Source: a virus
Length of the DNA stretch: 64,000 bases
IMG/VR virus record: IMGVR_UViG_3300049988_000024
Span: 1-64,000 of that record
Reading direction: 5' to 3' (one strand)
A program made the translations under genes and the position numbers. Numbering within the stretch: the stretch's first letter is position 1; each line of letters opens with the position of its first letter. Below, piece by piece: positions 577 through 43,832 of this stretch. The notes under the pieces are model-generated. The model was not told the DNA's origin. It did no database searches and worked only from the letters and a program-made list of their open reading frames with translations.

Positions 577-605
577 GTTATAAGCGATCCCGTCGTGCCT
601 GTCAA
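577..605 (-). promoter_or_regulatory. sigma70-type promoter for the leftward operon
   Basis: Minus strand TTGACA (600-605), 17 nt, TATAAC (577-582), about 25 nt upstream of the AGGAGG/ATG at 552. Confidence 0.65.
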
Positions 606-606
606 G

Positions 607-835
607 CCTATACGGCAGCTATACGGATTTCCGGTTTCCAGGCGAAAAGCGTATAGGCTAAGTGGTTGAAATTGATTGATTATTTTTCTAGATATACCAT
701 ATTCTTTCTCTTTTCTAAAAGTATATAAAAAAGAAGAGAGGAAGGTAATATGTTAATAAGAAAAGTTTCTGGTTTCACACGAAAAGTGGTATAGCGCGAA
801 AATAAGTTGTTTTGTTTCAATAAGTTAGCGTATAC
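607..835 (+). repeat. 229-bp composite element, copy 1 (six GCTATAC-type boxes plus AT-rich dyad core)
   Basis: Boxes at 607, 618, 651 (complement), 693, 789 (complement) and 829. The same offsets occur in the copies at 23869-24097 and 43592-43820 (inverted). Confidence 0.9.
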
Positions 836-847
836 GGATTAGTGGGC

Positions 848-876
848 TTGTCTTTTGTGGCGCGCTGGTGTATATG
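848..876 (+). promoter_or_regulatory. candidate sigma70-type promoter for the rightward early genes
   Basis: TTGTCT (848-853), 17 nt, TATATG (871-876), 12 nt after the repeat element and 36 nt before the ATG at 912. Confidence 0.4.
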
Positions 877-4719: not shown

Positions 4720-4898
4720 TGACGCCATCAGAACAGAAGATCAAACTTTATGACTTGTGTAAGCGTTTCGTAGAGGAGAACAACGTTTGGGAGGCATGTT
4801 GTGTCACAGACAACGACAGGACGTATTTGAATTCGATTGATCTTGTCGTGGAGATTTGCGAGATCGTGGGATACAAGGAGATGGAAGATGACGAATAA
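4716..4898 (+). CDS. hypothetical protein
   Basis: ORF track. Confidence 0.55.
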   Translation: MMTPSEQKIKLYDLCKRFVEENNVWEACCVTDNDRTYLNSIDLVVEICEIVGYKEMEDDE

Positions 4899-5328: not shown

Positions 5329-5653
5329 AAATTTGGATGTCACTCCGAATACGGTTCAGATAGATGAGGATGTTGTCGAGCGCCCTTCGTATGTAAGCGT
5401 AGGGCAGTGGACCGAGTTTTGGGAGAACGCGAAAGACGAGCATAGTTATGATGCGGGATATGAGGAAGGGCTAGCTGAGTCAAAGCGTGAACTTGACGAG
5501 CTAGAAAGTGAAAAAGAGGCGTTGGAAGACGAGATTGCAGACCTTCAAAAGAAAGTCAATGATCTAGAAGCTGAATTGAACGATACCTTGAACCGTTTTG
5601 ATAAGGAATATGATCGTGGCTTTCAGGATGGTCTTGGGGCGGATGATTCATGA
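5318..5653 (+). CDS. hypothetical coiled-coil protein
   Basis: ORF track 5276..5653, internal ATG at 5318. ELDELESEKEALEDEIADLQKKVNDLEAEL. Confidence 0.55.
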   Translation: MLFRNLDVTPNTVQIDEDVVERPSYVSVGQWTEFWENAKDEHSYDAGYEEGLAESKRELDELESEKEALEDEIADLQKKVNDLEAELNDTLNRFDKEYDRGFQDGLGADDS

Positions 5654-6168
5654 GAGAGGTTCGCAATCGTAGGTTAGTTGATCTTAACAGTAGAAAAAGC
5701 ATAGGTCAAAGCAAAGCTTGGGAAAAGCGTCGCCCTGCTACCATTGAAGCTTATTTAGATAGTAAATGCGAAAAGAAGGAAAACGGTTGTTGGGAAAGTA
5801 AAAATTGCAGAGAAGGAAAATACAAAGAAGGGCAATATAATGGAGAGGAATTTCTTTTACATATAAAGAGTTACGAAGTGCATAATGGTCTCGTTCCTAA
5901 AGGATTGATTGTTAGACATAAATGCGATAATACTAAGTGTATCAATCCTGAACATTTGGAAGTTGGAACAAAGAAGGATAATCGGCAGGACTTTCTTCGT
6001 AGGCATCCAAAAGCAAAAGAGCTTATTGCTGAACTTGTCGAGAAGGGAACAGAGGCTATAAAAGGTTTTTGGGATTCAATTGACGAGGGAGAGCGAAAGG
6101 ATTTTGTAAAGAGGCGCGCAGAAAAGCAGGCACAAATTCGGCGTGAAAGGCTGGCTAAATGCGAGTAA
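5650..6168 (+). CDS. HNH homing endonuclease
   Basis: LIVRHKCDNTKCINPEHLEVGTKKDNRQD (HNH/His-Cys box). AT-rich relative to its neighbours. Confidence 0.75.
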   Translation: MREVRNRRLVDLNSRKSIGQSKAWEKRRPATIEAYLDSKCEKKENGCWESKNCREGKYKEGQYNGEEFLLHIKSYEVHNGLVPKGLIVRHKCDNTKCINPEHLEVGTKKDNRQDFLRRHPKAKELIAELVEKGTEAIKGFWDSIDEGERKDFVKRRAEKQAQIRRERLAKCE

Positions 6169-12045: not shown

Positions 12046-14181
12046 ATGGCACCCATTCAAGCGCCCCTAGTGGGCGCTATTTTTGTCCCTGTAAGGTCAT
12101 CATACATGCTTCAGACCACCGTTGAATTCGACACCCGCGCCACCTTGGCGGAATCCAAGTTTCTGGAATCCTATAGCCGCCTCAAGCCCGACAATACCTA
12201 TGAAACGTGGGACGATTCGGTTGAGCGCGTCATGCGGATGCACCGCGAAAAGTACGCGGATCGCATGACCTACGAGCTTGATGGGTACATGCGCGAGGCC
12301 GAAGACAGTTACAAGCGCAAAGCGTTTTTGGGATCGCAGCGCGCCCTTCAGTTCGGAGGGGCGGAAATCCTGCGCAAGAACGCGCGAATGTATAATTGCA
12401 CGGCGTCCTATGCGGATCGGCCGCGCTTCTTCGCGGAAACCTTCTGGCTTCTCCTGTGCGGCTGCGGCGTCGGCTTCAGTGTGCAAACGCAGCACATCGC
12501 CAAGTTGCCGGTTGTTCAAGAACCTACGGGGCGCCCGATCGTTCATATCGTCGCAGACAGCATCGAAGGATGGGCCGATGCGGCACAAGCGCTATTCGAT
12601 AGCTACTTCCGTGGCACGCCACCCGTCAAGTTTAACTTTGATCTGGTTCGCGAAAAGGGCGCCTTCATTTCGGGCGGCTTCAAGGCCCCTGGCCCGGAGC
12701 CATTGCGCAAGGCACTCGATAAGATTCGCCCGATCCTGGATGCTGCTATCGGTCGCCAGATGGCCGATATCGAGGTTTACGATTGCGTCATGCACCTCAG
12801 TGACGCCGTTCTGTCAGGCGGTGTCCGACGCGCGGCCACGATTTGCATTTTCTCCAAGACTTCGGAGGCGATGCTGAAGGCCAAGACCGGCAACTGGTTT
12901 GTGGAGAACCCGCAGCGTGGGCGTTCCAATAACTCGGTTGCGCTTCTCCGGTCTGAAACCACATGGGAAGAGTTCTCTGCGATCATGCGGAGCGTGGAAC
13001 AGTTCGGCGAACCGGGCTTTGTGTTCTTGGATGACCTAGACCACCTGTTCAACCCATGCGTTGAAGTGGGTATGAAGGGCAAGACGGAAGACGGCGTTTC
13101 TGGTTGGCAGGGTTGCAACCTTTGCGAGATTTCCGGCGCTTATTGCACAACTGAAGAGCTTTTCTTTGAAGCCTGCCGGTCTGCCGCTATCATGGGCACA
13201 TTGCAGGCGGGTTACACGGACTTCGCTTATCTTGGCGAGGCGTCGGAACGGATTTTCCGTCGCGAAGCCCTGCTTGGCGTTTCCATTACAGGCTTCATGA
13301 ATTCGCCGGATATCTTGCTGAACGCGGACACGCTGCGGCGCGGGGCTGAGATCGTTAAGGAAACCAACCGCGAAGTCGCGGCGCTGATCGGCATCAATCC
13401 TGCGGCCCGTTGCACCGTTGTGAAGCCTTCCGGCAATGCGTCGGTTCTTCTTCAAACGGCTTCTTCGACGCAAGGCGAACACGCTAAGCGCTACCTTCGC
13501 AATGTCCAATACAACGCCCTGAACGAGGTTCCGCAGCTTATCCAGGCGACTAACCCGGCAATGGTGGAACGTTCCGTTTGGTCGCAGAATGAGACGGATG
13601 TGGTTATCTCCTATCCTATCACGCCGCCGAAGTCGTCCCGGTTCCGGCAGGATATCATGGGCGTTCGGCAGCTAGAAATCGTCCGCATGATTCAAGAGAA
13701 CTGGATCGAAGGCGGAAAGAACGCTGAGCTTTGCGTTGACGAGTCGTTGTCGCACAACGTCAGCAATACGATTACGGTCGATAATTGGGCTGATGTCGCG
13801 CGCTACGTGTACGACAACCGATTTACGTTTGCGGGTATCTCGTTTCTTGCCTATAGTGGTGACCGTGACTATGCGCAGGCACCTTTTACGGAAGTCTTGT
13901 TGGCGGATGAGATTCGCCGGAAGCATGGGCTGAACTGGCGGTTATTTGATGAGGTCTTTGAGGACGTAAATTATAACGTTGCTATTCGCCGGAAGCCTTG
14001 GCACGAGCTAAGCTTGCTCGAAAAGGATTGCTTGATCCTTGGGAAGTGGAATGCCATTCAAGAAACCTATGTGCCGATTGATTGGCGGGACCTGAAAACA
14101 AAGGACTACACGGATATTGATCAATTAGGGGCAATGGCTTGCAACGTTGATCCATTGACAGGAGTTTCAAACTGTGCTTGA
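12046..14181 (+). CDS. ribonucleotide reductase, class II-like (monomeric RTPR/NrdJ-like)
   Basis: 711 aa. GCGVGFSV, VLSGGVRRAA, RGRSNNSV, FGEPGFVF, NPCVE...CNLCEI and TVVKPSGN line up with RNR catalytic-core motifs. Start uncertain (alternative ATG at 12106). Confidence 0.75.
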   Translation: MAPIQAPLVGAIFVPVRSSYMLQTTVEFDTRATLAESKFLESYSRLKPDNTYETWDDSVERVMRMHREKYADRMTYELDGYMREAEDSYKRKAFLGSQRALQFGGAEILRKNARMYNCTASYADRPRFFAETFWLLLCGCGVGFSVQTQHIAKLPVVQEPTGRPIVHIVADSIEGWADAAQALFDSYFRGTPPVKFNFDLVREKGAFISGGFKAPGPEPLRKALDKIRPILDAAIGRQMADIEVYDCVMHLSDAVLSGGVRRAATICIFSKTSEAMLKAKTGNWFVENPQRGRSNNSVALLRSETTWEEFSAIMRSVEQFGEPGFVFLDDLDHLFNPCVEVGMKGKTEDGVSGWQGCNLCEISGAYCTTEELFFEACRSAAIMGTLQAGYTDFAYLGEASERIFRREALLGVSITGFMNSPDILLNADTLRRGAEIVKETNREVAALIGINPAARCTVVKPSGNASVLLQTASSTQGEHAKRYLRNVQYNALNEVPQLIQATNPAMVERSVWSQNETDVVISYPITPPKSSRFRQDIMGVRQLEIVRMIQENWIEGGKNAELCVDESLSHNVSNTITVDNWADVARYVYDNRFTFAGISFLAYSGDRDYAQAPFTEVLLADEIRRKHGLNWRLFDEVFEDVNYNVAIRRKPWHELSLLEKDCLILGKWNAIQETYVPIDWRDLKTKDYTDIDQLGAMACNVDPLTGVSNCA

Positions 14182-14701
14182 AGTTTGGAAACAGGTAATT
14201 GGATATGAAGATTCTTATGAGGTTTCAAGCATAGGAAGGGTGCGGTCGATTGACCGCACGGTTAGTTGCAATACAGGAACAAGAGTTGTTCCGGGAGTTT
14301 TTCTAAAGCTAAATCCTCACAATAGAACTGGACATCCGCGCGTTTCGCTTTCACGTAAAAGAAAGATGACTTCTTTCTTTGTCCACACACTCATGATGCG
14401 CGCTTTTGTTGGTGAAAGACCAAAAGGATATCATATTTGCCATAACGATGGGGATTCAAGCAACAATCGATTAGATAATTTGCGATATGATACGCCTAAA
14501 GCAAATAGCCGTGATAAAATTATTCATGGAACAATTGCAAAAATGGAAAGGAACGGTTTCGCAAAATTAAATTCGGAAGAGGTAGAAAAGATTCGAGGCT
14601 TTAGAAAAGAGGGCAGAACACTCAAATCAATCTCAATTGAATTTGATACTTGTATTAGCAACGTAGCTAAGATATGTAATCACGAAACGTGGACAGGTTA
14701 G
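14174..14701 (+). CDS. HNH homing endonuclease (NUMOD4 + HNH_3-like)
   Basis: WKQVIGYEDSYEVSSIGRVRS and ICHNDGDSSNNRLDNLRYDT. AT-rich; overlaps the RNR stop. Confidence 0.8.
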   Translation: MLEVWKQVIGYEDSYEVSSIGRVRSIDRTVSCNTGTRVVPGVFLKLNPHNRTGHPRVSLSRKRKMTSFFVHTLMMRAFVGERPKGYHICHNDGDSSNNRLDNLRYDTPKANSRDKIIHGTIAKMERNGFAKLNSEEVEKIRGFRKEGRTLKSISIEFDTCISNVAKICNHETWTG

Positions 14702-19623: not shown

Positions 19624-20038
19624 GAAGACGTTTCGCGATGAGTTGGCAATGTTGTTCGATACGGAAGGATATACATTTGAATCTTTGCAGGATTTGTTTC
19701 GCTTTGCAGGACACGAATATTCGCGTGAAGCTGATGCGTTGAAGGCTGCTAGCATGGCGGCGCAAGCCAAGCTCCGATATATGTACGCGGATGCTATGTT
19801 GCGGGCGAGTGGTCGGGTAGAGAAGACGGCTCCGGCGGCTGATGCGGATGGGTGGATCGTACATGACGGCAAGGGTATGCCCTGCGATAAGGAAACCGTT
19901 GTTGATGTGAAGTTCAGAGATGACGATACATCGTATGGTTCGGATGCAATGTTTTGGGACGGACCACTGCCAAAGGATAGTTGGTGGAACCATCAAAACA
20001 GAAGTTGCGACATCATTGCTTGGAGGCACGCACGATGA
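19616..20038 (+). CDS. paralogue 1 with C-terminal DGWI.HDGKGMP domain
   Basis: ORF track 19535..20038. ATG at 19616 after AAGGAGAAG. Confidence 0.65.
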   Translation: MSEKTFRDELAMLFDTEGYTFESLQDLFRFAGHEYSREADALKAASMAAQAKLRYMYADAMLRASGRVEKTAPAADADGWIVHDGKGMPCDKETVVDVKFRDDDTSYGSDAMFWDGPLPKDSWWNHQNRSCDIIAWRHAR

Positions 20039-20469
20039 ACACGTTCAATAACGCAAAGGCCGACACCTTGCGGCGCGAGTTGGGGAAGCTTCAGTGCTGG
20101 TTGACCGGCTATCATGCGGGCGCGGGGCACCGGACAGGAGTGATTGGAGTAGGGATTCCTGGCGAAGATGCTGTGCGTCAGGCGCAATTGTTTTTGGAAG
20201 ACCTGATGCGGGAAGCTGCGGAACGGACACCGGTTACGGAACCGGAAAAGCCGCAGCCCGTGGCTGCTGCGGACGGGTGGATCACACATGACGGGAAGGG
20301 TATGCCAGTTGATGGTCTGACGGAAGTTACGATTAAGTGCCGTGATGGATATGAAGGAGCCGATTGCGACGCAAGTTTTTGGTACGGCGGTGAAGAAGAC
20401 TGGTGGACTTTTGGATCACCTAAAAACACAGGAGATGAAATCATAGCGTACAAGGTTGTAAAGTCATGA
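20035..20469 (+). CDS. paralogue 2 with C-terminal DGWI.HDGKGMP domain
   Basis: ORF track 19981..20469. ATGA overlap at 20035. Confidence 0.65.
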   Translation: MNTFNNAKADTLRRELGKLQCWLTGYHAGAGHRTGVIGVGIPGEDAVRQAQLFLEDLMREAAERTPVTEPEKPQPVAAADGWITHDGKGMPVDGLTEVTIKCRDGYEGADCDASFWYGGEEDWWTFGSPKNTGDEIIAYKVVKS

Positions 20470-21631: not shown

Positions 21632-23869
21632 ATGGCGCAAATCGAATCATACGCAGATATTCCAGAGGTCAACGCATACGTCAAACGCCACGGGGCACAG
21701 TTCCGTTCGGCGTCGAAGGCGGTTGTAGAGGAGAAGGTTGGAGAGTATTTTCGCGAGGTCGCCAAGATCAAGTTCTCGCGCGATGGGACCGTCAAGGCAA
21801 CACCTGGATACGAACCGGATGAAGCGGAAGGCGAGCGGATCGCGTTCGCTATTCGCAATGGGCAGTGGCCTGTCTGGCGCATGGCAACGGAAGCGGATGA
21901 GCCGCCCGACGCCGTGAAGCGGGCACTAGCCGAGAACCCTGACGACGTGTTTGCTTATCGCGATGTGACCGGCAAGCGCATATACATGTATCAGGTTCGA
22001 TACATGACCAAGAAGGGCAAGCGGTCCTATCATGCGTGGACCATCTACGAGGACAACGTTTGGCGTCCATGGGAACCGGATACGGAGCATCTACCGCTCT
22101 ACGGCCTGGAAACGCTGAAGGACAACAGCGTTGCGATCATCCATGAAGGCGCCAAGGCCGCTCGGGCGATGCAACGCATGATCGCACAAAAGACGGCGAA
22201 AGACAAGCGCCTGTTCGAGAATCATCCATGGGCGCAAGAGCTTTCGTTCGCGGCTCATGTGGCGTTCACGGCGGGCGCATTTGCTGCCAAGGACACCGAA
22301 TGGGAGATGTTGCGCCGTAACGGGATCGAAAGCGTCATCATCATTCCCGACAATGACGAGGCGGGACGGTCCGCTGTTCGCGACATCAGCAAGGCGGTCG
22401 GGTTGCCCGCGAAGTGGGTTCAATTCGATTCGCGGTTCCCGTCGTCGTTCGATATGGCTGACCCAATGCCGGAGGCGTTGTTCGTGGAAGCGGACGGGAA
22501 GAAGCATTGGAAGGGGCCGACGTTCGGAGAACTGATTACGCCTTGCACATGGGCGACACGGTTGATTCCGAACCCCGACAAGCCGGAAAAGATGATCGCG
22601 ACGCTGAACAGGGCGTTTCAACGGGAATGGTTCTATGTCGGGCAAACAGGGTTGTTCGCTTGGCGGCACGATCCGCGCATTCGCTACAACGAAACCAGCT
22701 TTAATGCCAATATGCGGCGCTGTTCTGATGTGAAGGACACGGCGGCGCTTGTGTTACAGGGTTTGACGGATAGTATCGACAAGCTGACGTATCGCCCCGA
22801 CTTGCGGTCGCAGAATGGCGATCGGCGCGTGAACGAGGGAATCGGCGAAACGGCGCTGAACACCTATTCGCCAACCAATGTCAAGGCCATACCGGGCGAC
22901 GTGACGATGTGGCACGAGTTCCTGGCACATCTGATACCCGATGAATCCGAACGCAAGCTTGTGGAGCGGTGGATCGCAACAGTTGTTGCGCGGCCAGCAA
23001 CACGAATGCGTTATGCGATGCTTCTGACCTCAGCCATGCAAGGAACCGGCAAGACCACGCTTTGCGAAGCGGTGTTGCGTCCGCTTGTTGGCAAACAGAA
23101 CTACAATGCCGTCACCGAAGACACGATCATGAACCCGCAGTTCAACGACTGGTTTGTTGAAAAGACGCTGGTTGTCGTGAATGAGTTCTACCAGAACAAG
23201 ACTAATCGCGCAGGAAACAAACTGAAAAGCGTGATTTCCGACGATATTGCGATGGTGAACACGAAGTATTTGGTTCCCTATGCTATCCGCAATCACGCGC
23301 ATTTGATTGCTTGTTCTAACACGGCTGTCGCGGTCGGAATCGAGGACTCGGATCGTCGTTGGCTTATTCCGACGTGTACGGAAGAAGCCTGGAAGTGGTC
23401 GGATAAGTTCTATCGCTGGTTGCATAGCGGTGGCTTGGAAGCGATCAAGCATTGGGCGGATACCTACGGTGATTACGTGACCACGGGCGAGCGGGCGCCG
23501 GATACCAAGGCCAAGCGCATGATCGTGGAGGAATCGCGCACGCCTCGCTGTCAGGAGGCTTATAACCTTTGGCGGGCTTTGGAGGAGCAAGGGGCGGAAC
23601 GGTCGATATCGCAGCGCAGGCTGAACAATTGGCTGCGCGGGTTCGATGCGGGCTATGCCAAGGATAAGGACGTAGACTATCGAAAAGCGATCCTGGAAGC
23701 GGGCGGATCGATCCTGGATGAGCGCATGAGCATCGACGGACGACCTCAGTATGTGATGGTCACTTCGGCTTTGAAGGCAAAGATGCAACAGTTGGATAAT
23801 GAATTGCGGCGAAAACTTGTTCGTGAATCGCTGCTTTGTGACGAAGATATGGCCAATCCGACCATCTAG
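21632..23869 (+). CDS. primase-helicase (Toprim-type primase fused to SF3 / P4-alpha, D5-like helicase)
   Basis: 745 aa. Toprim-like IHEGAKAARA...VIIIPDNDEAGRSA; Walker A SAMQGTGKTT; Walker B LVVVNEF; SF3-like IACSN. Confidence 0.8.
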   Translation: MAQIESYADIPEVNAYVKRHGAQFRSASKAVVEEKVGEYFREVAKIKFSRDGTVKATPGYEPDEAEGERIAFAIRNGQWPVWRMATEADEPPDAVKRALAENPDDVFAYRDVTGKRIYMYQVRYMTKKGKRSYHAWTIYEDNVWRPWEPDTEHLPLYGLETLKDNSVAIIHEGAKAARAMQRMIAQKTAKDKRLFENHPWAQELSFAAHVAFTAGAFAAKDTEWEMLRRNGIESVIIIPDNDEAGRSAVRDISKAVGLPAKWVQFDSRFPSSFDMADPMPEALFVEADGKKHWKGPTFGELITPCTWATRLIPNPDKPEKMIATLNRAFQREWFYVGQTGLFAWRHDPRIRYNETSFNANMRRCSDVKDTAALVLQGLTDSIDKLTYRPDLRSQNGDRRVNEGIGETALNTYSPTNVKAIPGDVTMWHEFLAHLIPDESERKLVERWIATVVARPATRMRYAMLLTSAMQGTGKTTLCEAVLRPLVGKQNYNAVTEDTIMNPQFNDWFVEKTLVVVNEFYQNKTNRAGNKLKSVISDDIAMVNTKYLVPYAIRNHAHLIACSNTAVAVGIEDSDRRWLIPTCTEEAWKWSDKFYRWLHSGGLEAIKHWADTYGDYVTTGERAPDTKAKRMIVEESRTPRCQEAYNLWRALEEQGAERSISQRRLNNWLRGFDAGYAKDKDVDYRKAILEAGGSILDERMSIDGRPQYVMVTSALKAKMQQLDNELRRKLVRESLLCDEDMANPTI

Positions 23870-24097
23870 CTATACGAGTGCTATACGGAAAACAGGGGCT
23901 TCGGAAAATTTGGTATAGCGTAAGCCCTTGATTTTCCTATCTTTTATTTCTTACTATACCACTTTTCTTCTTCTAATAGAAAGTATATAGAAAAATAATA
24001 AGGGTAATAATATCATCAGTTAAAAAGTTTTAGGTTTCACCCGAAATTCCGTATAGCTGTTCGTGAAAGCCCTATGAATCAAGGGTTTGAGCTATAC
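23869..24097 (+). repeat. 229-bp composite element, copy 2
   Basis: Boxes at 23869, 23880, 23913 (complement), 23955, 24051 (complement) and 24091, the same offsets as copy 1. The first box overlaps the primase-helicase TAG. Confidence 0.9.
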
Positions 24098-24119
24098 ATG
24101 TCCTGAAAGGAGCTTCTTT

Positions 24120-24533
24120 TTGCCTACGGAAACGGACTATAAACGGGCTTTTAGGGCCTCTTGCGGCGGTTGGACCAGTGCTGTTGAGCCTGGAAGGGGC
24201 GGCGATAGCGGCGCGGCTGACTTGCTGGTGCTGGTTGGACAGCGCATTGTGCCCGTGGAACTGAAGATCGGCCAGCTTGGCGACGATGGCTTGTTTTGCT
24301 TCCATAAGCCGGGGATACGGCCAGCGCAGATCAGTTGGCACTTCGAATTGGCGAAGGCGGGCGGGTTCAGTCTTTTGGCCGGTGGACATTGGATGGACGG
24401 CTGGTGGCAAACCTATGTCTTTGAGGCTGCGAATTTGAGCGGTTGGCGTGATGGCCTTGTGCCGATTGCGGACACGGAACACGAATCCTTGGTCGAGTTG
24501 CTCCCTTGGTTGGTTGATGTCTGGGTCAGTTAA
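24120..24533 (+). CDS. VRR-NUC / PD-(D/E)xK nuclease-like protein
   Basis: ORF track 24087..24533. In-frame TTG at 24120 sits 7 nt after AAAGGAG. AADLLVLVGQRIVPVELK...RPAQISWHFELAKAGG fits D...ExK...Q..W. Confidence 0.55.
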   Translation: MPTETDYKRAFRASCGGWTSAVEPGRGGDSGAADLLVLVGQRIVPVELKIGQLGDDGLFCFHKPGIRPAQISWHFELAKAGGFSLLAGGHWMDGWWQTYVFEAANLSGWRDGLVPIADTEHESLVELLPWLVDVWVS

Positions 24534-24534
24534 A

Positions 24535-24563
24535 TTGACTTTTTGCGAGAAATATGTTATTTT
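24535..24563 (+). promoter_or_regulatory. candidate sigma70-type promoter for the HNH gene
   Basis: TTGACT (24535-24540), 17 nt, TATTTT (24558-24563). Confidence 0.45.
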
Positions 24564-24584
24564 CTTTGTTTAACGGAGAATAAC

Positions 24585-25085
24585 ATGAACGATTCGCATG
24601 ATGAGTTTAGACATAAGATCATTGGTCATTGGTGTACTTATTGCGGAGATAACGCCGAAGAGTTTGACCATTTCCCGCCGCGTGCCGTAACCAATTACGG
24701 TCTGCTAGTTCCTTGCTGTAGAGAGTGTAATAGTCACATATCGACTTTGTATGCGTTTTCCTTTAAAGATCGTTCGCTTTTAGCAAAAGATAAGATCAGG
24801 AAAAAATACTCGAAGCTTCTTCGAATACCTGAATGGGATGAAGAAGAGCTAAACGATATGGCTCCTCATATGCGTGATAGCGTTCTAGATGGTCAACGGA
24901 TTCAAGAAATTATAAAGCAACGATTAGCTTGGGACTCGTGGTCTTATCTAAAGGGCATTGACATTAAAAACGATATAGAACGGGTCGTTGTAGAAATAGA
25001 CCTAATTCTTGGAAATATGAAACGCGAATTTGACCGCTCAGAGCGTTTGAACAAGAAAAACGATCAGGACTTGCTCAAACCCTAG
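24585..25085 (+). CDS. HNH-type nuclease (packaging-associated position)
   Basis: CTYCG...EFDHFPP...PCCRECN Cys/His pattern. AT-rich. Lies upstream of the terminase genes. Confidence 0.6.
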   Translation: MNDSHDEFRHKIIGHWCTYCGDNAEEFDHFPPRAVTNYGLLVPCCRECNSHISTLYAFSFKDRSLLAKDKIRKKYSKLLRIPEWDEEELNDMAPHMRDSVLDGQRIQEIIKQRLAWDSWSYLKGIDIKNDIERVVVEIDLILGNMKREFDRSERLNKKNDQDLLKP

Positions 25086-26108: not shown

Positions 26109-26184
26109 CTGGGTGTAGCTCAGTTGGTAGAGTCCCGCGTTTGGAGCGCGGTTGTCGTTGGTTCGAGTCCAGCCACCTAGACCA
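26109..26184 (+). tRNA. tRNA-Pro (anticodon TGG) with encoded CCA
   Basis: Hand-folded cloverleaf: acceptor CTGGGTG/CACCTAG, D arm GCTC..GAGT, anticodon arm CCGCG-TTTGGAG-CGCGG, T arm GTTGG-TTCGAGT-CCAGC, then A-CCA. Confidence 0.85.
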
Positions 26185-26472: not shown

Positions 26473-26895
26473 ATGTCTGAGGATAACCCGGTTGGGCGTC
26501 CTTCGCTCTTTAGGGAAGAATACGGCGATGTCATTATTGAATGGATGGACAAGGGTTTTAGTCTTACGGCGGCTGCATCACGTCTAGATGTTAGCCGCCA
26601 AACTGTTTACAATTGGGTAGACGAACACCCCGAATTCGCAGCCAAGGTGAAGATAGCTCAATCAAAGCGCCAGTTCTTCCTTGAGAATCGCCTACTGAAG
26701 GCGACTGAAGGCCCGGTCGTCACCTCTTCCATCTTCGCCCTCAAGAACGCCGCCCCCGCCGATTGGCTAGAGAAGACCCATACAGAGGTCACGGGCAAGG
26801 ACGGCGGGCCGATAGAGTCTAAGCAGTCGCTTGACATCACGGGCCTATCCGATGCGGTACTAGAAGAACTGCTTTCGAAGTTGGGGCAAAAGTAA
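26473..26895 (+). CDS. terS: terminase small subunit
   Basis: ORF track 26419..26895. ATG at 26473 after AGGAGG. GRPSLFREEYGDVIIEWMDKGFSLTAAASRLDVSRQTVYNWVDEHPEF is a typical TerS HTH N-terminus. Confidence 0.8.
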   Translation: MSEDNPVGRPSLFREEYGDVIIEWMDKGFSLTAAASRLDVSRQTVYNWVDEHPEFAAKVKIAQSKRQFFLENRLLKATEGPVVTSSIFALKNAAPADWLEKTHTEVTGKDGGPIESKQSLDITGLSDAVLEELLSKLGQK

Positions 26896-26913
26896 AGGGC
26901 CGTAAAGGCCCTT
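26895..26913. terminator. bidirectional hairpin between terS and the antisense cassette
   Basis: AAGGGCC-GTAAA-GGCCCTT. Confidence 0.55.
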
Positions 26914-27115
26914 AATTACTTCCTAGAAGTCTCAAGCTTTCTGGGATTTCAAGATCAAAAACAGGGTCAAGCTCTACCCCTCCTCCCTCAAAAGACCAAG
27001 CGTCCCACCCTCGTGTCTTAATTCCTAGCATAGCTAGTTTCGAAAATTGATAGAAATCTTCTCTTTCGAATGAAGATCGTGGATCAATTAGACATGTTGC
27101 TTTGTAGTATGCCAT
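26912..27115 (-). CDS. hypothetical protein (cassette A, gene A1)
   Basis: ORF track. AT-rich; GGAGAG RBS; own promoter. Confidence 0.6.
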   Translation of the reverse strand: MAYYKATCLIDPRSSFEREDFYQFSKLAMLGIKTRGWDAWSFEGGGVELDPVFDLEIPESLRLLGSN

Positions 27116-27141
27116 CTCATCTCTCCGTTCTCAACACCCAC

Positions 27142-27170
27142 AACATAGCCCGTGGTTTGGGGCTTGTCAA
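27142..27170 (-). promoter_or_regulatory. promoter of A1
   Basis: Minus strand TTGACA (27165-27170), 17 nt, TATGTT (27142-27147). The A2 TGA stop (27167-27169) lies inside the -35. Confidence 0.55.
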
Positions 27171-27370
27171 CTAGAAATATTGTCTTCTTTGGTTGGGCTT
27201 ACAGTTCCAACGATACGTTTCTGTGTATAGTATTCATTTGGAACACAATCGTACTTACCGCGCTTGAATTCAATGATCTTGTAAGGCTCTTTCATTGTAT
27301 CGGCCCAAGCTTGCGCTTTTGCGAATGCCCACGCTTCCGAGCATGGTTTGAGAGAAAGAAAATAGCTCAT
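27167..27370 (-). CDS. hypothetical protein (A2)
   Basis: ORF track. Confidence 0.6.
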   Translation of the reverse strand: MSYFLSLKPCSEAWAFAKAQAWADTMKEPYKIIEFKRGKYDCVPNEYYTQKRIVGTVSPTKEDNISS

Positions 27371-27523
27371 TTAAGCCACCTTCTTAAGAAGAAAAATTTC
27401 AATCGAAGCATCAGCCGTGTAAATTTCGGCAAGCTGCGCAATGATATCCTGACGATCAATTGCGTATGTTTCCATAAACTTGGAAACGCCGTCGATGTAT
27501 GCCATGAAAGCGAACTTGGACAT
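27371..27523 (-). CDS. hypothetical small protein (A3, 50 aa)
   Basis: ORF track 27371..27697. Internal ATG at 27523 after CGGAG (MSKFAFMAYIDG...). Confidence 0.5.
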   Translation of the reverse strand: MSKFAFMAYIDGVSKFMETYAIDRQDIIAQLAEIYTADASIEIFLLKKVA

Positions 27524-27547
27524 CTGCTTGCTCCGTTTCGATGATTG

Positions 27548-27576
27548 ATATTCGCACACGGCCGAAACCCTGTCAA
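27548..27576 (-). promoter_or_regulatory. promoter of A3-A2
   Basis: Minus strand TTGACA (27571-27576), 17 nt, GAATAT (27548-27553). The A4 TGA stop (27573-27575) lies inside the -35. Confidence 0.5.
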
Positions 27577-27842
27577 CAAGAATCCGCAATCTCTCGCGAT
27601 TTAATTTCGGCATATTCTTCAACGGCCAGAACGTACAATCCCCAATCCGTCCGCTTTCGCCCTGGCCAAACCGATGCCTTCTCAAATCCCATACCACGCT
27701 CTAGAGCATATTCCTGAGCCTTCTCGATGAAGGCAAAGAAGTCCCAAGTCGGTGGCAAAGGATCGCCTTCCACCAGCCCTTTTGACCGGAGGAAGGCGCG
27801 ATAAAAATCGGTGTAAACCGAAAGCTCTTCGACTCTCTTCAT
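27573..27842 (-). CDS. hypothetical protein (A4)
   Basis: ORF track 27573..27854. ATGA overlap at 27842. Confidence 0.6.
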   Translation of the reverse strand: MKRVEELSVYTDFYRAFLRSKGLVEGDPLPPTWDFFAFIEKAQEYALERGMGFEKASVWPGRKRTDWGLYVLAVEEYAEIKSREIADSC

Positions 27843-28033
27843 GCAACCATCCACATCGAACCGTTCTTGGTGATCAGGCCCTTCTCAGAAGCCATACGGA
27901 AAGCAGCCGAGTAAGCAGCGCGGGTGTGCGAGACGTTGAAGTAGGAAGCGACGAACCAAGACTGACCGGCGTTGATGGCGTCCACGATCTCGTTAAAGCA
28001 GACTTCGACAGAGGGGTTGAGGTTGCGGGCCAT
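27839..28033 (-). CDS. hypothetical protein (A5)
   Basis: ORF track; AGGAA RBS. Confidence 0.6.
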   Translation of the reverse strand: MARNLNPSVEVCFNEIVDAINAGQSWFVASYFNVSHTRAAYSAAFRMASEKGLITKNGSMWMVA

Positions 28034-28070
28034 TTGCTTCGTTCCTGTGTTTGTCCGTTTCGATGATCAA

Positions 28071-28099
28071 GTTATAGCCCTACCCCAAATCCCTGTCAA
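28071..28099 (-). promoter_or_regulatory. promoter of A5-A4
   Basis: Minus strand TTGACA (28094-28099), 17 nt, TATAAC (28071-28076). Confidence 0.6.
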
Positions 28100-28145
28100 C
28101 CACTTTCTCGCATCCAACGCAAAATAATCAGAAGGACCAGACCCC

Positions 28146-28220
28146 ATGTCCATCGAACGAATCCTAGGCATCTGCATTCTCGTAATCTTGGTCGTATGGC
28201 TGGCGACAAGGGTTCTGTAG
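28146..28220 (+). CDS. possible 24-aa hydrophobic peptide on the opposite strand
   Basis: Hand-found: MSIERILGICILVILVVWLATRVL, between the A5 promoter and the A6 terminator. No clear RBS. Confidence 0.25.
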   Translation: MSIERILGICILVILVVWLATRVL

Positions 28221-28229
28221 GCAAAGGAA

Positions 28230-28248
28230 AAGGGGCTTAGCGCCCCTT
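28230..28248 (-). terminator. rho-independent terminator of the A9-A6 unit
   Basis: Minus strand AAGGGGC-GCTAA-GCCCCTT followed by TTTCCTTTG. Confidence 0.6.
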
Positions 28249-28629
28249 AACCATTTTATACGTAACGCCTTGGCTTTCAAATAGGCGGGTTGCCCAATCG
28301 CCGTCTAGCGGGTTGAAGCCTGTCATCGAGCCTTCTGCGATGAGGCCGCGTACAAGCTTTAGGCCGCTAACAAGGGCGTCCCGCTCAGCGGTCAGGGATT
28401 CGATTTCAAGCGCATCTCGCTCTGAATCAGAACAGAGCTTTTCCCAACCCTGCATGGTCGCATCCATGTTGGCGAACTCTTCGTTAAGCCGACGCTTCAA
28501 CTCGTCGCGTTCAGCCGTCAGGGATTCGATTTCCTCAGCCGCTTCCTTAATGACGCCCCGCAAATTGCCAGGATGAGCGTTTTCGTACAGCGTCCATTCG
28601 CGAAGTTTATCGGCGAAAGTCTTTTCCAT
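28237..28629 (-). CDS. coiled-coil protein with internal EIESLTAERD(E/A)L repeat (A6)
   Basis: ORF track 28237..28668. ATG at 28629 after GGGAGAAAAG. Confidence 0.6.
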   Translation of the reverse strand: MEKTFADKLREWTLYENAHPGNLRGVIKEAAEEIESLTAERDELKRRLNEEFANMDATMQGWEKLCSDSERDALEIESLTAERDALVSGLKLVRGLIAEGSMTGFNPLDGDWATRLFESQGVTYKMVKGR

Positions 28630-28802
28630 CACTTTTCTCCCGTCTTCGGCACCGCCACCATCTCGCAAGCATACACGTTATGCTGACGGGCGCAATCGCG
28701 GAGCTTGCGTTCATACTTGTTAGGTGATCCAAAAATCAAGATCGCAAGCCCAAACCCAATTATCAGGGAGCCGACCCCGACAAGTGCTAGAGACTTCATC
28801 AT
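28629..28802 (-). CDS. small membrane protein (A7, 57 aa)
   Basis: Hand-found. GGAGGAAGGACG then ATGATG at 28802 (MMKSLALVGVGSLIIGFGLAILIFG...). Confidence 0.5.
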   Translation of the reverse strand: MMKSLALVGVGSLIIGFGLAILIFGSPNKYERKLRDCARQHNVYACEMVAVPKTGEK

Positions 28803-28927
28803 CGTCCTTCCTCCACAACATACCCACGCGCCACCAAGAACGCACGGGCTTCGTCTAGCATGTGGGTGGGCAAGCTGTAAACGCCTTGGAACTTGCGGCC
28901 GGGTTGGGTGAAGCGGATGGTGATCAT
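28799..28927 (-). CDS. hypothetical small protein (A8)
   Basis: ORF track 28799..28987. The longer form overlaps A9, so the ATG at 28927 is preferred (MITIRFTQPGRKF...). Start uncertain. Confidence 0.4.
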   Translation of the reverse strand: MITIRFTQPGRKFQGVYSLPTHMLDEARAFLVARGYVVEEGR

Positions 28928-28946
28928 TTGTAAAATACCTTGTTGA

Positions 28947-29156
28947 TTAGATTTCGAGTTCGCGCAGGAAAACGCGATCGTTTGCAATTTTTCGAATTTC
29001 AGCAGCTAGCTCAAAGTCGCGCTCAGCCAACATCTCGGAAACAGTGTTTGCATTATCACCAAAAGGTGCAACATGCTTGGAGTTGGATGCGGTGTTTGCG
29101 CCCTCAATTATAAGAGCGGCACGATTCAAGATTTGGTTCATTTGTAAGCGGTTCAT
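28947..29156 (-). CDS. hypothetical protein (A9)
   Basis: ORF track; AGGAGA RBS. Confidence 0.6.
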   Translation of the reverse strand: MNRLQMNQILNRAALIIEGANTASNSKHVAPFGDNANTVSEMLAERDFELAAEIRKIANDRVFLRELEI

Positions 29157-29182
29157 CGTCTTTCTCCTACGGTTCCCCGTTA

Positions 29183-29211
29183 CGTGTAGCTGAGGATGGG
29201 TTGGGTGTCAA
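29183..29211 (-). promoter_or_regulatory. promoter of A9-A6
   Basis: Minus strand TTGACA (29206-29211), 17 nt, TACACG (29183-29188). The A10 TGA stop (29208-29210) lies inside the -35. Confidence 0.45.
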
Positions 29212-29450
29212 GTACCGTAAAAATCAGAATTTTCGCGAATTGAATATGTTGCTGGATTTCCGTTGCCATCTATAAAAGAAATCTCAATCTTTTCGGATGT
29301 CACGCGCTTGACGGTCAAGTCCTTAATGCGGGTATTGATGCACTTTGAAACAACAAAACCGCTCGCTGTCTCCAGATCATTTGCGGTTATAGCCCAAGCT
29401 GTTGTGAAAGGCAACTTAGATGGCACAGCTTCAATGATAAAGGTCTTCAT
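29208..29450 (-). CDS. hypothetical protein (A10)
   Basis: ORF track 29208..29477. ATG at 29450 after AGGAG. Confidence 0.6.
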   Translation of the reverse strand: MKTFIIEAVPSKLPFTTAWAITANDLETASGFVVSKCINTRIKDLTVKRVTSEKIEISFIDGNGNPATYSIRENSDFYGT

Positions 29451-29476
29451 CTCTCTTCTCCTTTGTCCACAATCCA

Positions 29477-29505
29477 TGTGTAGCGGGTTTGGGGTGGGTG
29501 GTCAA
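29477..29505 (-). promoter_or_regulatory. promoter of A10
   Basis: Minus strand TTGACC (29500-29505), 17 nt, TACACA (29477-29482). The A11 TGA stop (29502-29504) lies inside the -35. Confidence 0.45.
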
Positions 29506-29771
29506 TCGCTTTTCTTCGGCAATCTAGCTTCTGGCCAGCCGAGTTTAGCGCACCAAACGGTTCGCGCTTCTAGATAGCGCCAAGGAAATTCATCACCGCA
29601 ATTTCTAACATAGTCGTCTTCCCAACGCAGCGCAGTTATCTCCCAAGCCTTTGCGCGATATTCTCCTTTGCCTAGCAGCATATCGCAAGCTCTTTCGTGG
29701 GCCTCCGCTCGGAAGCGGAGGAGGGTTTCGTATTTGTGTCGGGCGTAGATTTCATCCATTCCTTCGATCAT
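29502..29771 (-). CDS. hypothetical protein (A11)
   Basis: ORF track. Confidence 0.6.
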   Translation of the reverse strand: MIEGMDEIYARHKYETLLRFRAEAHERACDMLLGKGEYRAKAWEITALRWEDDYVRNCGDEFPWRYLEARTVWCAKLGWPEARLPKKSD

Positions 29772-29950: not shown

Positions 29951-29979
29951 AATATGCCTGACCCGATAACGAGTGTCAA
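29951..29979 (-). promoter_or_regulatory. promoter of A12-A11, back-to-back with the terL start
   Basis: Minus strand TTGACA (29974-29979), 17 nt, CATATT (29951-29956). Confidence 0.5.
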
Positions 29980-29987
29980 CACATAAA

Positions 29988-31457
29988 ATGCCTAAACCCG
30001 CATCTATTCCGCTTAGTCGCCTACCGAGCGTCGATCAGATCGAAACCGAGCTTAGCCGTCGCCATTGTCAGCGCTCGTTCCGCGAGTTCGCTAAGCAGGC
30101 TTGGCATGTCATCGAACCGTCCACCTCGCTCAAATGGAATTGGGCGATGGACGCTATCTGCGATCACCTCCAAGCCGTCCACGAAGGTCACATCAAGCGC
30201 CTCCTGATGAACGTGCCTCCTGGTACGTCTAAATCGACGCTGACGGGCGTTCTCTATCCGGCTTGGGTGTGGACGCAAGACCCTTCGAAACGCTTCCTAG
30301 GGACGGCCCATAAGGCTGAGCTTGCGCACCGAGACAATCTGAAGTGCCGTCGTATCATTCAGTCCGAATGGTATCAGAAGCGTTGGAAGATCGAACTGAC
30401 GGGCGATGCTAACCGCACAACCAAATTCGAGAACACAAAGACCGGCTTTCGCGAATCGATGGCCTTTACTGGCATGACGGGTTCCCGTGGCGACTGCGTG
30501 ATTCTTGACGATCCGATTAGCGCGGGCAATTCAAATAGCGAAGCCGAGCTTTACAAGGCCGAAATCGAGTTCACGGAAACGCTGCCAACGCGCGTCAACA
30601 ATGACGAATCGGCCATTATCGTCGTGATGCAGCGGCTTAACGAACGTGATACGTCTGGTCTCATCCTGAGCCGCGATCTTGGATACGAACACTTGATGTT
30701 GCCTATGCGCTTTGAGCCTGAGCGCAAGTGTTATACTTCGATTGGCTTTGGAGACCCGCGCACCGAAGAAGGCGAATTGCTCTTTCCTGAGCGCTTCCCT
30801 GAATCACAGGTCGCAAGCCTAGAGAAGACGATGGGATCGTTCGGCGCGGCTGGCCAGTTGCAGCAACGGCCTATTCCGCGTGGTGGTGGACTCTTTCAGC
30901 GATCTTGGTTCAATCCGATCCGAGAAGTGCCGCAGGGCACACGCTTCTTCCGAGGATGGGACTTAGCCGCTTCCACTAGTGCTACTTCGGCCTATACCGC
31001 AGGCGTCAAGCTTGGCCTTACGCCAGAAGGCCGGATCGTTATTGCCCATGCTATCCGTGACCGCATGACGGCTGGCAAGGTCATTGCAACTATTCGCGCA
31101 ACGGCTATGGCCGATACTGAGAAAACAAAGCTATCGATCCCGCAAGACCCTGGCCAAGCGGGCAAGGCTCAAAAGGAAGGATTCGCGCAACAGCTTCGTG
31201 AGTTCAATGTGCATTTCTCGCCTGAGTCTGGCGACAAGGTGACGCGCGCCGAACCTTTCGCGGCACAAGCCGAAGCCGGTCTTGTGGATATCGTCGTTGG
31301 CGAGTGGACAGACGCCTATCTAGACGAGATTTCAACGTTCCCGAATGGATCGTATCTCGATCAGGTAGACGCGACTTCGCGCGCCTACCATTTGTTGTTG
31401 CGGGAAACAGCAAAACCAAAAGCGACTATCGGCTGGGGTCCGAAGTTGGTTAGTTAA
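29988..31457 (+). CDS. terL: terminase large subunit
   Basis: ORF track 29973..31457 (ATG at 29988 preferred over GTG at 29973). Walker A-like NVPPGTSKST; VILDDP Walker B; C-terminal nuclease-like half. Length and N-terminus are typical of TerL. Confidence 0.85.
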   Translation: MPKPASIPLSRLPSVDQIETELSRRHCQRSFREFAKQAWHVIEPSTSLKWNWAMDAICDHLQAVHEGHIKRLLMNVPPGTSKSTLTGVLYPAWVWTQDPSKRFLGTAHKAELAHRDNLKCRRIIQSEWYQKRWKIELTGDANRTTKFENTKTGFRESMAFTGMTGSRGDCVILDDPISAGNSNSEAELYKAEIEFTETLPTRVNNDESAIIVVMQRLNERDTSGLILSRDLGYEHLMLPMRFEPERKCYTSIGFGDPRTEEGELLFPERFPESQVASLEKTMGSFGAAGQLQQRPIPRGGGLFQRSWFNPIREVPQGTRFFRGWDLAASTSATSAYTAGVKLGLTPEGRIVIAHAIRDRMTAGKVIATIRATAMADTEKTKLSIPQDPGQAGKAQKEGFAQQLREFNVHFSPESGDKVTRAEPFAAQAEAGLVDIVVGEWTDAYLDEISTFPNGSYLDQVDATSRAYHLLLRETAKPKATIGWGPKLVS

Positions 31458-31886: not shown

Positions 31887-31887
31887 C

Positions 31888-32584: not shown

Positions 32585-32592
32585 CAAACCTC

Positions 32593-32796: not shown

Positions 32797-32797
32797 T

Positions 32798-33016: not shown

Positions 33017-33017
33017 C

Positions 33018-42988: not shown

Positions 42989-43582
42989 ATGCCTCAGTCG
43001 AAATATTTCTTGGGCGAATGGAAGGACGTTGCAGATGGGGAGTTCGTGGTTGCGCGAGCTTTCCCGGTTGCAGGCGAAGTGCAGGCTCCCGGAACTCCGT
43101 TCGAAAAGGACGGCATTGACGGGCGCCGGTTGAAGCAGCTTTACGAAGCAAGATACATCACGCCTCGCGATAGCGATTTGCCGGGGCTTGGAGGCACCGT
43201 AGAACGCGAATTGAAGGGCGATGCTACCGACCTAGCGGCCAGCCCTTCCGAAGGCGCCCTAGAGGCTTTTACGGGCGATTCCACTGAAGAGGTTGCGGAA
43301 CGCTACGAAGACGAGCCTACGGACGCGGAAGAGCCGGTTGTGAATAGCGCTACCGAGCCTGAACTTCGCGAAGGCGATGAAGCCGCGCCAGTTAGCGATA
43401 TCAAGGAAGACACCGAGACGGAAAAACAGCCCAAGCGCACCGGAACGGTTGTCGAAGGCAAGGCCGGTTGGTTCCACGTCGAGGACGGCGAAGGCAATAA
43501 GGTCGGCAAGTCCACCCGTGACGAGGAAGAGGCAAAGGAGAACCTTGAACTCTACCTTTTGGGTGAGAATTTCGAGGAATAA
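42989..43582 (+). CDS. hypothetical acidic protein
   Basis: ORF track. Long Asp/Glu-rich, probably disordered middle section. Confidence 0.6.
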   Translation: MPQSKYFLGEWKDVADGEFVVARAFPVAGEVQAPGTPFEKDGIDGRRLKQLYEARYITPRDSDLPGLGGTVERELKGDATDLAASPSEGALEAFTGDSTEEVAERYEDEPTDAEEPVVNSATEPELREGDEAAPVSDIKEDTETEKQPKRTGTVVEGKAGWFHVEDGEGNKVGKSTRDEEEAKENLELYLLGENFEE

Positions 43583-43591
43583 TCCAGACTT

Positions 43592-43820
43592 GTATAGCTT
43601 AAACTATTGATTTTGTTGGTTCTTTTTCGGAGCTATACGGGTTTTTGAGTGAAAGTGAAAAGTTTTTAAACTGATATTACTACTACCCTTTCTCTTTTTT
43701 ATATACTTTATAAAAGAGAGAAGAATATGGTATAGCTAAAAAAATAAGATAACAAAAACAACAGCTTAAGCTATACGCAATTTGAAATCAGACCCCAAAT
43801 CCGTATAGCCTTCGTATAGC
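43592..43820 (-). repeat. 229-bp composite element, copy 3 (inverted)
   Basis: The reverse complement aligns with copies 1 and 2. Boxes at the same offsets counted from 43820 (43820, 43809, 43776, 43734, 43638, 43598). Confidence 0.9.
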
Positions 43821-43832
43821 GGGAACCCCGAA

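Follow-up and report, generated by a model that had tools for sequence, protein, structure and literature searches.

What kind of element can recur, in an almost unchanged layout, in three widely separated intergenic gaps of one phage genome? The question is raised by the first 64,000 bp of the IMG/VR virus record IMGVR_UViG_3300049988_000024 (this whole stretch is called the window here), which belong to a circular contig of ~66.4 kb. Three copies of an element of ~245 bp, all of them intergenic, AT-rich and palindromic, have been delimited in it. The repeat is genuine, non-coding and structurally constrained, its palindrome is kept by compensatory change, and it has not been described before. 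By analogy with better known replicons, its most likely reading is a triplicated iteron and stem-loop form of the origins known beside primase/SF3-helicase genes.

A palindromic repeat of fixed spacing

The limits of the copies were set with an nhmmer profile made from five copies (the three of the window and two orthologs), which each copy of the window matched with an E-value of ~1e-59 to 1e-63 and which extended slightly beyond the 229-bp span between the outermost boxes:

597..850, plus strand: copy 1 (nhmmer E 7e-59; GC minimum 0.27, genome 0.51)
23859..24112, plus strand: copy 2 (profile match, box positions, ungapped alignment)
43578..43830, minus strand (inverted): copy 3 (profile match, box positions)

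A preliminary description of this DNA had taken 607-835, 23869-24097 and, inverted, 43592-43820 as copies of one element, each measuring exactly 229 bp from outermost box to outermost box and carrying its boxes at the same offsets. Coordinates, length and offsets were confirmed in all three copies, and the 32 identities that it counted between copies 1 and 2 in their first 54 positions proved exact. In fact, an ungapped three-way alignment holds across the full 229 bp with the box offsets conserved and no gaps at all, the pairwise identities being 133, 146 and 145 of 229 (58-64%) versus 63 +/- 6 for shuffled sequences, and 109 columns are the same in the three copies. The hexamer CTATAC is strongly concentrated in them, since 16 of the 24 occurrences in the window fall within the ~700 bp of the copies (8.9 would be expected for the whole window); the sole other exact GCTATACGG in the window lies at 18408, as had been noticed before. 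The copies, with a GC content of 0.25-0.33 and minima of 0.25-0.27, are also the only strongly AT-rich islands of a genome whose mean is 0.51. No fourth copy exists in the remaining 2.4 kb of the circular contig.

Seven boxes are found per copy, at the same offsets in all three and in the orientation > > < > < < >. Their positions are as follows, those of copy 3 being given in plus-strand coordinates:

Copy 1: B1 607-613, B2 618-630, B3 644-657 (reverse), B4 691-704, central 715-727 (reverse), B5 782-795 (reverse), B6 829-841
Copy 2: B1 23869-23875, B2 23880-23893, B3 23906-23919 (reverse), B4 23953-23966, central 23979-23989 (reverse), B5 24044-24057 (reverse), B6 24091-24097
Copy 3: B1 43814-43820, B2 43803-43809, B3 43770-43776, B4 43730-43736, central 43700-43706, B5 43632-43638, B6 43592-43598

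Six GCTATAC boxes had been counted previously. Their positions hold, including that of box 6 in copy 1, although this one reads CGTATAC and not CTATAC; the number has to be raised to seven, since the central AAAGTATATA is itself a reverse-oriented box, and the motif is longer than had been thought, covering ~14 bp (GCTATAC-N3-WTTT). When the 64 kb were scanned with a position-weight matrix, the 12 best sites (14-18 bits) all lay within the copies, the best site outside them reaching 13.7 bits. The proposed fit of the boxes to whole helical turns turned out to be weak, as the offsets correspond to 1.05, 4.19, 8.19, 17.33 and 21.14 turns. The boxes stand in both orientations around a core of ~25% GC, and the outermost boxes of each copy are direct, not inverted, repeats. 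That paralogs which have diverged by ~40% should differ by no indel argues for a spacing-constrained nucleoprotein complex.

The dominant structural feature of the element, a palindrome of ~190 nt, had been overlooked in the preliminary description, together with a terminator-like hairpin within copy 2. The structures are located as follows:

651..835, plus strand: long imperfect palindrome of copy 1 (equivalents 23913-24097 and 43592-43776)
706..740, plus strand: central hairpin of copy 1, in which a pyrimidine-rich arm is followed by CTAAAAGTATATA and then by a purine-rich arm; it corresponds to helix 4 in the consensus structure (equivalents near 23968-24002 in copy 2 and near 43687-43721 in copy 3)
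23895..23935, plus strand: terminator-like hairpin of copy 2, GGGGCTT...AAGCCC followed by TTGATTTT, located between boxes 2 and 3, with box 3 enclosed

The long palindrome spans boxes 3 to 6, in such a way that box 3 with TAAGnnnTTG pairs with CAAnnnTTA and box 6, while box 4 pairs with box 5; a repeat search returned the corresponding inverted pair in copy 1, with 47-nt arms that are 77% complementary. Fold z-scores ranged from -3.0 to -5.1 with RNA or DNA parameters. Compensatory change was assessed on nine copies from several genomes against 500 shuffles: 89.6% of the cells were paired (80.1% when shuffled) and 13 pairs had changed on both sides (6.7 when shuffled), neither value being reached in any of the 500 shuffles, whereas sliding the partners by 1-3 columns left at most 57% of the cells paired. 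The central hairpin shows compensatory UA<->CG changes of its own, and its polyPy-CTAAAAGT-polyPu motif is kept in three relatives (L124, L128 and L130); it represents the AT-rich core and is a candidate unwinding region. As for the terminator-like hairpin, it escaped a simple terminator scanner because its loop exceeds 8 nt. Two relatives (L009 and L010) share its GGGCTTAC/GTAAGCCC stem and TTGATTTT, and L124 has an analogous hairpin, CCCTGAAACCCC/GGGGTTTCAGGG followed by TTGAAATT.

No open reading frame (ORF) is common to the three copies. Copy 1 holds a 14-codon ORF, MLIRKVSGFTRKVV, behind GAGAGGAAGG (735-797), and its ortholog in a 69-kb relative (L128:9470-9530) a similar one, MKRKVFSFGVNLV, behind AAGGAGG, both ending at the GTATAG of box 5. 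A conserved peptide was rejected, copies 2 and 3 being devoid of an ATG.

The neighbouring primase-helicase and the known origins

Each copy exactly fills its own intergenic gap. The TAG stop codon of a primase-helicase gene is where copy 2 begins, and the copy ends 9 nt before the ribosome-binding site of the next gene:

21632..23869, plus strand: primase-helicase gene, 745 aa, with a Toprim-like region, an SF3 helicase (DUF5906) and a C-terminal domain of ~120 aa (PHROG and Pfam)
24120..24533, plus strand: gene directly after copy 2, 137 aa (gene call), with a D...ELK motif

The Toprim_2 match of the first protein (E 3.5e-4) falls below the cut-off of Pfam, and a sequence search of the PDB returned the NrS-1 helicase only. 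The structural model of helicase plus C-terminal domain (pLDDT 87) gave Foldseek matches, spanning 300-380 columns, to NrS-1 (8e-15), to SaPI5 Pri-Rep (9e-8) and to PriRep1 with double-stranded DNA (1e-7). The C-terminal 121 residues, modelled with a pLDDT of 90, adopt a predicted helix-strand-helix-helix-wing topology; their PDB matches are weak (Foldseek E of at least 0.15) and nearly all winged-helix domains, so that this domain looks like a winged helix in the model. It is, moreover, the region of the protein that diverges most when genomes with differing boxes are compared, residues 651-745 being 44-56% identical to the L009 ortholog while the rest is 72-100% identical. The 137-aa product has no Pfam or PHROG match, and its motif suggests a PD-(D/E)xK nuclease.

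Orthologous elements were found at the same sites in a small metagenomic clade:

After the primase gene: L009 and L010 (80% and 76% protein identity), L124 (53%)
After the capsid-adjacent gene, always inverted: L036, L037, L038, L039, L112, L116
In the divergent early-promoter gap (copy-1 position): L128, L129, L130, L126

Thus, the adjacency of copy 2 to the primase-helicase gene is kept in orthologs down to 53% protein identity, and the order primase, element, 137-aa gene is kept as well, homologous N-termini following the element in L009, L010 and L124. The element is less alike than its surroundings, with 54-71% identity between orthologs as against 80-96% for the flanking proteins, and paralogs in one genome are slightly more alike (0.57-0.63) than orthologs (0.54-0.55). 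The boxes themselves drift among genomes (AAAAGTGTAT type in L037, GAATAC in L124, CCACTTTTT in L130), and yet box architecture and central motif persist; in the L037 lineage, the intervals between boxes 3 and 4 and between boxes 5 and 6 have each grown by 11-12 bp, that is, about one helical turn. The copy-3 orthologs of L037 and L039 are 96% identical except that the loop of a GAAACCC/GGGTTTC hairpin between boxes 5 and 6 (L037:11540-11585) is exactly inverted, CCCCTACGCAGCAAGGG versus CCCTTGCTGCGTAGGGG, a flip-flop inversion which shows that intrastrand pairing takes place at the DNA level.

Beyond this clade, no GenBank phage was matched by the element in blastn or by the window's first 20 kb in megablast, and the element matched nothing in a plasmid collection. 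In IMG/VR, the box-pair pattern gave coding-sequence or tandem-repeat coincidences only. The core pattern gave mainly AT-rich chance matches, and the strict box 2-box 3 pattern, run against metagenomes and genomes, recovered the clade already described and otherwise only chance matches in Neomarinimicrobiota metagenome-assembled genomes. The element is missing at the capsid locus of more distant relatives (RHEph19, L041-L097), and copy 1 was not found in the 66-kb relative, where its flanking genes are not conserved. Every relative covering the copy-2 or copy-3 sites has the element, without presence/absence polymorphism. In a more distant setting, a P4/PICI-like island (L131) with integrase, AlpA, a 39%-identical primase-helicase and then a restriction enzyme, a 115-nt AT-rich palindrome (4728-4862; z -4.9), bounded by two GGCCAAA and two TTTGGCC, directly follows the primase-helicase gene; it is likely an origin and makes a useful object of comparison.

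These observations bring the element close to three known systems. In SaPIs, the Rep proteins are SF3 helicases, some of them fused to a primase, whose C-terminal winged helix binds 6-12 iterons just downstream of rep, in an origin with an AT-rich centre and iterons pointing opposite ways on its two sides (PMC9371898). The present element agrees in its SF3-helicase neighbour with a C-terminal domain and in its repeats: the seven short boxes lie around an AT-rich centre, at least two per side, in opposed directions, and directly downstream of the ORF in copy 2, L009, L010 and L124, which is not the case of copies 1 and 3. It differs in that the repeat sequences are not similar, the element is longer (~245 bp) with a ~190-nt palindrome and T-tracts in its boxes, and three copies occur in a lytic-type phage, two of them far from the putative initiator gene, whose binding is a prediction here.

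In pRN1, a terminator hairpin and then a stem-loop of ~100 nt lie 3' of a primase/SF3/winged-helix gene; the stem-loop's structure, and not its sequence, is conserved, and the same has been proposed for phage BIP-1 (PMC4234260). The order of stop codon, small terminator hairpin and large stem-loop is found again in copy 2, in its orthologs and in the L131 island, and here too the stem-loop sequence drifts while pairing is kept, at what has been proposed in pRN1 and BIP-1 as the assembly place of a multifunctional replication protein (PMC4234260). In contrast, pRN1 has a prim/pol domain instead of a Toprim primase; iterons were not found in it and its origin is single-copy, as against the seven boxes and three copies of the present case.

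For an initiator-binding module that is dispersed in more than one copy, the third system offers a precedent. Phage P4 has its octamer iteron in two clusters, ori and crr, which lie 4.5 kb apart and are both required in cis; the iteron, TGTTCACC, is unrelated to GCTATAC-N3-WTTT. In the window, one box type is likewise clustered, at three loci ~20 kb apart, in a genome whose candidate initiator shares with the alpha protein of P4 the order of primase, SF3 helicase and C-terminal, putatively DNA-binding, domain. In alpha, this order is DnaG/Toprim-type primase, SF3 helicase and winged helix (PMC2777425). No homology to the P4 iteron or to the origin-binding domain of alpha (1KA8) was found, and 1KA8 was absent from the best 50 Foldseek matches of the C-terminal domain.

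We therefore favour, as tentative and a little short of an even chance, an origin-like assembly site for the primase/SF3-helicase of the phage itself, present in three copies. It is copy 2 that motivates this reading, because it combines SaPI-type and pRN1-type signatures at the published position of such origins, 3' of the gene. By analogy with the known systems, the winged-helix-like domain of the 745-aa protein would recognise the 14-bp boxes, held at a fixed spacing around the core, and hexamers would assemble on both sides of it; the AT-rich palindrome would then melt or be extruded as a stem-loop, the helicase would load itself and the Toprim domain would prime. Copy 2, lying 3' of the gene and behind the terminator-like hairpin, would be the canonical initiator-adjacent origin, and copies 1 and 3 would be extra origins or cis-acting enhancers comparable to crr of P4. 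Binding, melting and origin activity are all drawn from the analogy. Among the functions suggested in the preliminary description, the general one of a multi-site nucleoprotein assembly region fits the findings, and its iteron-origin version gains indirect support from the position of copy 2 at the stop codon of the primase/SF3-helicase gene, the match to SaPI5 Pri-Rep, the confinement of the boxes and their indel-free spacing.

Several facts weigh against this proposal. Only copy 2 adjoins the putative initiator gene, and three origins would be unusual in a 66-kb phage. In addition, box sequences are heterogeneous in the relatives: one genome (L009/L037) mixes TATACGGATTT with ATACACTTTT, and the 5-nt variable part differs between the box pairs of L130, which fits base-pairing constraints as well as, or better than, a single protein reading a single iteron. 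The winged-helix assignment relies on Foldseek matches that are not significant, two homologous primases (38-41% identity) are followed by no intergenic gap, and for some relatives the copy-1-type element alone is documented.

Other explanations of the element

A first alternative dispenses with any role for the phage. The element could be a selfish or passively maintained palindromic repeat of the MITE/REPIN kind, AT-rich and foreign, which spread to three intergenic sites in the ancestor of the clade and persisted through hairpin-templated repair and gene conversion. The GC content of the copies, their exact filling of the gaps, their absence from the capsid locus of distant relatives and from the site behind the primase gene there, the slightly greater likeness of paralogs (as in concerted evolution), the DNA-level loop flip between L037 and L039 and the abundance of HNH homing endonucleases in the genome all agree with it. 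Moreover, REP/BIME, REPIN and Correia/ERIC-type repeats are equally multi-copy, intergenic, palindromic, AT-rich and variable in orientation, with an IHF-consensus-like sequence between inverted units. Unlike them, however, the present element has no inverted termini, no visible target-site duplications and no cognate transposase, its ends being direct box repeats; no transposase, RAYT-type or integrase gene is present in the Pfam-annotated calls (which cover ~54 of the 66.4 kb, ~33.9-40.5 and 53.0-54.9 kb being partly scanned). There are only three copies, at positions which are conserved in the relatives, without polymorphism at the copy-2 and copy-3 sites and with the primase adjacency holding to 53% protein identity, and the fixed, indel-free offsets of paralogs ~40% diverged argue for selection on spacing. 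We regard a selfish repeat as unlikely. MITE or transposon ends in the strict sense, including the transposase-end function that had been suggested, find no specific support, the outer boxes being direct repeats, inverted termini and variable target duplications not being seen, and the element being present in every relative covering the sites.

A role at the level of transcription has a similarly small chance of being correct. The element would act as a bidirectional attenuator or terminator, as an mRNA-stabilising or RNase III-type hairpin, or as an operator array, partitioning the expression units. The copies do stand at module boundaries, namely between divergent early promoters, at the end of the 23-kb replication operon and at the head-connector/tail junction; copy 2 and its orthologs carry a terminator-like hairpin followed by a T-run, the long hairpin forms from either strand, and the reverse complement of box 4, TGGTATAAT, TGGTATAGT or TGGTATGAT in several copies, resembles an extended -10. 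Nevertheless, this -10-like sequence is poor in copies 1 and 3 (TATATC, TATAGC), and no sigma-70 promoter (16-18 bp spacer) is common to the three copies in either direction, although the phage otherwise uses near-consensus TTGACA-17-TATAAT. Nor did the terminator scanner detect a site that the copies have in common. The orientation is inconsistent too: copy 2 is sense, copy 3 antisense and copy 1 outside both divergent units. In copy 2, the terminator precedes the large palindrome, so that read-through RNA would rarely contain the latter. As regards the flanks of copy 1, which fills the gap between divergent sigma-70-like promoters, the outward promoters reported previously are real consensus-like sites on both strands:

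577..605, minus strand: leftward sigma-70-type promoter TTGACA-17-TATAAC, abutting copy 1, with the same GCTTGAC-type -35 as many promoters of this genome
849..877, plus strand: rightward promoter-like site TTGTCT-17-TATATG, abutting copy 1, read from the sequence and not called by the scanner

Only copy 1 is near promoters, and an operator array, another of the functions suggested at first, cannot therefore explain copies 2 and 3.

It is rather improbable that the element works as a strand-specific single-strand signal, the forward strand folding as lagging-strand template and recruiting the primase-helicase in the manner of an ssi or primosome-assembly site, or else as a structured RNA. The forward-strand consensus fold comprises 29 pairs with 36 G.U cells versus 7 A.C cells, while the reverse-strand consensus recovers the central 10-pair hairpin only, and, if forks set out from near copy 1, the +, +, - orientations would make the forward strand the lagging-strand template at both of the other copies. 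However, the G.U count leans to the forward strand because the consensus structure was predicted on that strand, and strand specificity is only suggested, since single-sequence fold energies have no consistent strand bias; under DNA parameters, the two strands of copy 3 hardly differ in how well they fold. Furthermore, no conserved RNA-gene promoter is seen, and the whole window matches Rfam at its tRNA-Pro gene only. An Rfam family was accordingly rejected for the element: none reached the gathering score, and copies 1 and 3 had best E-values of 0.2-0.7 to unrelated eukaryotic families.

The geometry of the copies bears on the same proposal. With centres at ~724, 23986 and 43704 on the 66.4-kb circle, copies 2 and 3 are separated from copy 1 by 23,262 and 23,420 bp and are mirror-oriented; this layout is suggestive, its chance probability being ~0.01 and the pattern having been noticed post hoc. 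The three copies might constitute a deliberate replication architecture, in which copy 1 fires bidirectionally and copies 2 and 3 are polar, strand-specific elements met simultaneously by both forks; we consider this quite improbable. Under such an architecture, copies 2 and 3 could be secondary origins, sites on the lagging-strand template for priming or helicase reloading, or fork barriers bounding the 19.7-kb packaging/head region, and a symmetric multi-site replichore organisation, if true, has not been described for a phage. The point opposite copy 1 (~33.9 kb) lies ~0.6 kb from a divergent promoter gap (~33.3 kb) before the portal gene. GC skew follows gene orientation and was for this reason rejected as an origin marker.

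It is highly improbable that the element serves as a pac site for packaging, or in partition, with the small terminase or some other helix-turn-helix protein bound to it. Hexamer boxes on either side of an AT-rich centre, together with an IHF-consensus match (WATCAANNNNTTR) seen in copies 2 and 3, seem to resemble the pac layout of phage P1, and the Mu-like portal and Sf6-like small terminase suggest headful packaging. But three pac sites per genome are not expected, no copy lies in or beside the small-terminase gene (~26473-26895), and the IHF-like sequence is nothing but the arm that pairs with TAAGnnnTTGAT. Nor were partition genes seen, and the centromere that had been suggested has no specific support. 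The conserved GTTTCAC was rejected as a parS half-site, as it is not palindromic and is absent from the relatives, and a check by eye for DnaA, LexA and sigma-54/sigma-28 motifs gave nothing consistent. The box 1/box 2 junction of copy 1 (607-630, minus strand CCGTATAGCTGCCGTATAGGCTT) contains CTGCCGTATAGGC, which coincides with 13 nt of the hairpin in the type I-F CRISPR repeat; found in copy 1 only and without a stem, it is probably a chance likeness.

Genomic setting and significance

The genome is siphophage-like and circular. It encodes a DnaE-type polymerase, RNR, ThyX, an SNF2 helicase, a large terminase, a Mu-like portal, an Sf6-like small terminase, a capsid protein and a tape measure of 1783 aa, and no integrase was found among the Pfam-annotated genes. 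Copy 3 fills the gap between an acidic 197-aa gene, which follows the major capsid gene, and the head-closure gene, and is antisense to them. A family of near-consensus sigma-70 promoters, (G)CTTGAC(A/T)-17-TATAAT-like and often with TG upstream of the -10, was recognised at the following positions:

Plus strand: 1181, 6578, 25521, 26080, 33330, 37962, 45604, 52733, 59689
Minus strand: 606, 32058, 33302, 47625

Since such promoters precede early, tRNA and structural genes, the host RNA polymerase seems to drive the whole genome. The tRNA-Pro (TGG) gene at 26109-26184, between the replication and packaging modules, has its own TTGACA promoter at 26080.

Other features were recorded along the way. 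The replication module is interspersed with HNH endonuclease genes, at least four in number (HNH_3, NUMOD4, AP2 fusions), at window positions 24543-25085 (0.4 kb downstream of copy 2), 5650-6168 and 14174-14701 and at L121:6350-6856. The relative L130 has a DnaE gene interrupted by the insertion of a DUF790 ORF, and a LAGLIDADG signal is found in its RNR. The large terminase gene (29973-31457) stands alone on the plus strand between minus-strand clusters of small genes of unknown function (26912-29771 and 31454-33245), an odd layout which Rhizobium phage RHEph19 shares. Finally, a 62-nt direct repeat, 81% identical and with its units 425 bp apart (19820-19881 and 20245-20306), lies in coding sequence, which suggests a tandem pair of small paralogs.

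For nearly every uncultured phage the origin of replication is unknown, and it can seldom be predicted from sequence; this is where the element would matter. Should it be a selfish palindrome instead, it would still illustrate cleanly how a family of non-coding repeats evolves in concert within a phage genome. If, on the other hand, the origin reading is true, an AT-rich palindrome that is studded with boxes and lies immediately 3' of a primase/SF3-helicase gene would be a recognisable signature, with which origins could be located in the large and mostly metagenomic family of DUF5906 primase-helicase replicons, comprising phages, satellites and islands. A single element would then link the iteron-type origin of SaPIs with the stem-loop-type origin of pRN1, and the arrangement of its three copies, with a spacing free of indels and a mirror geometry, would be new.

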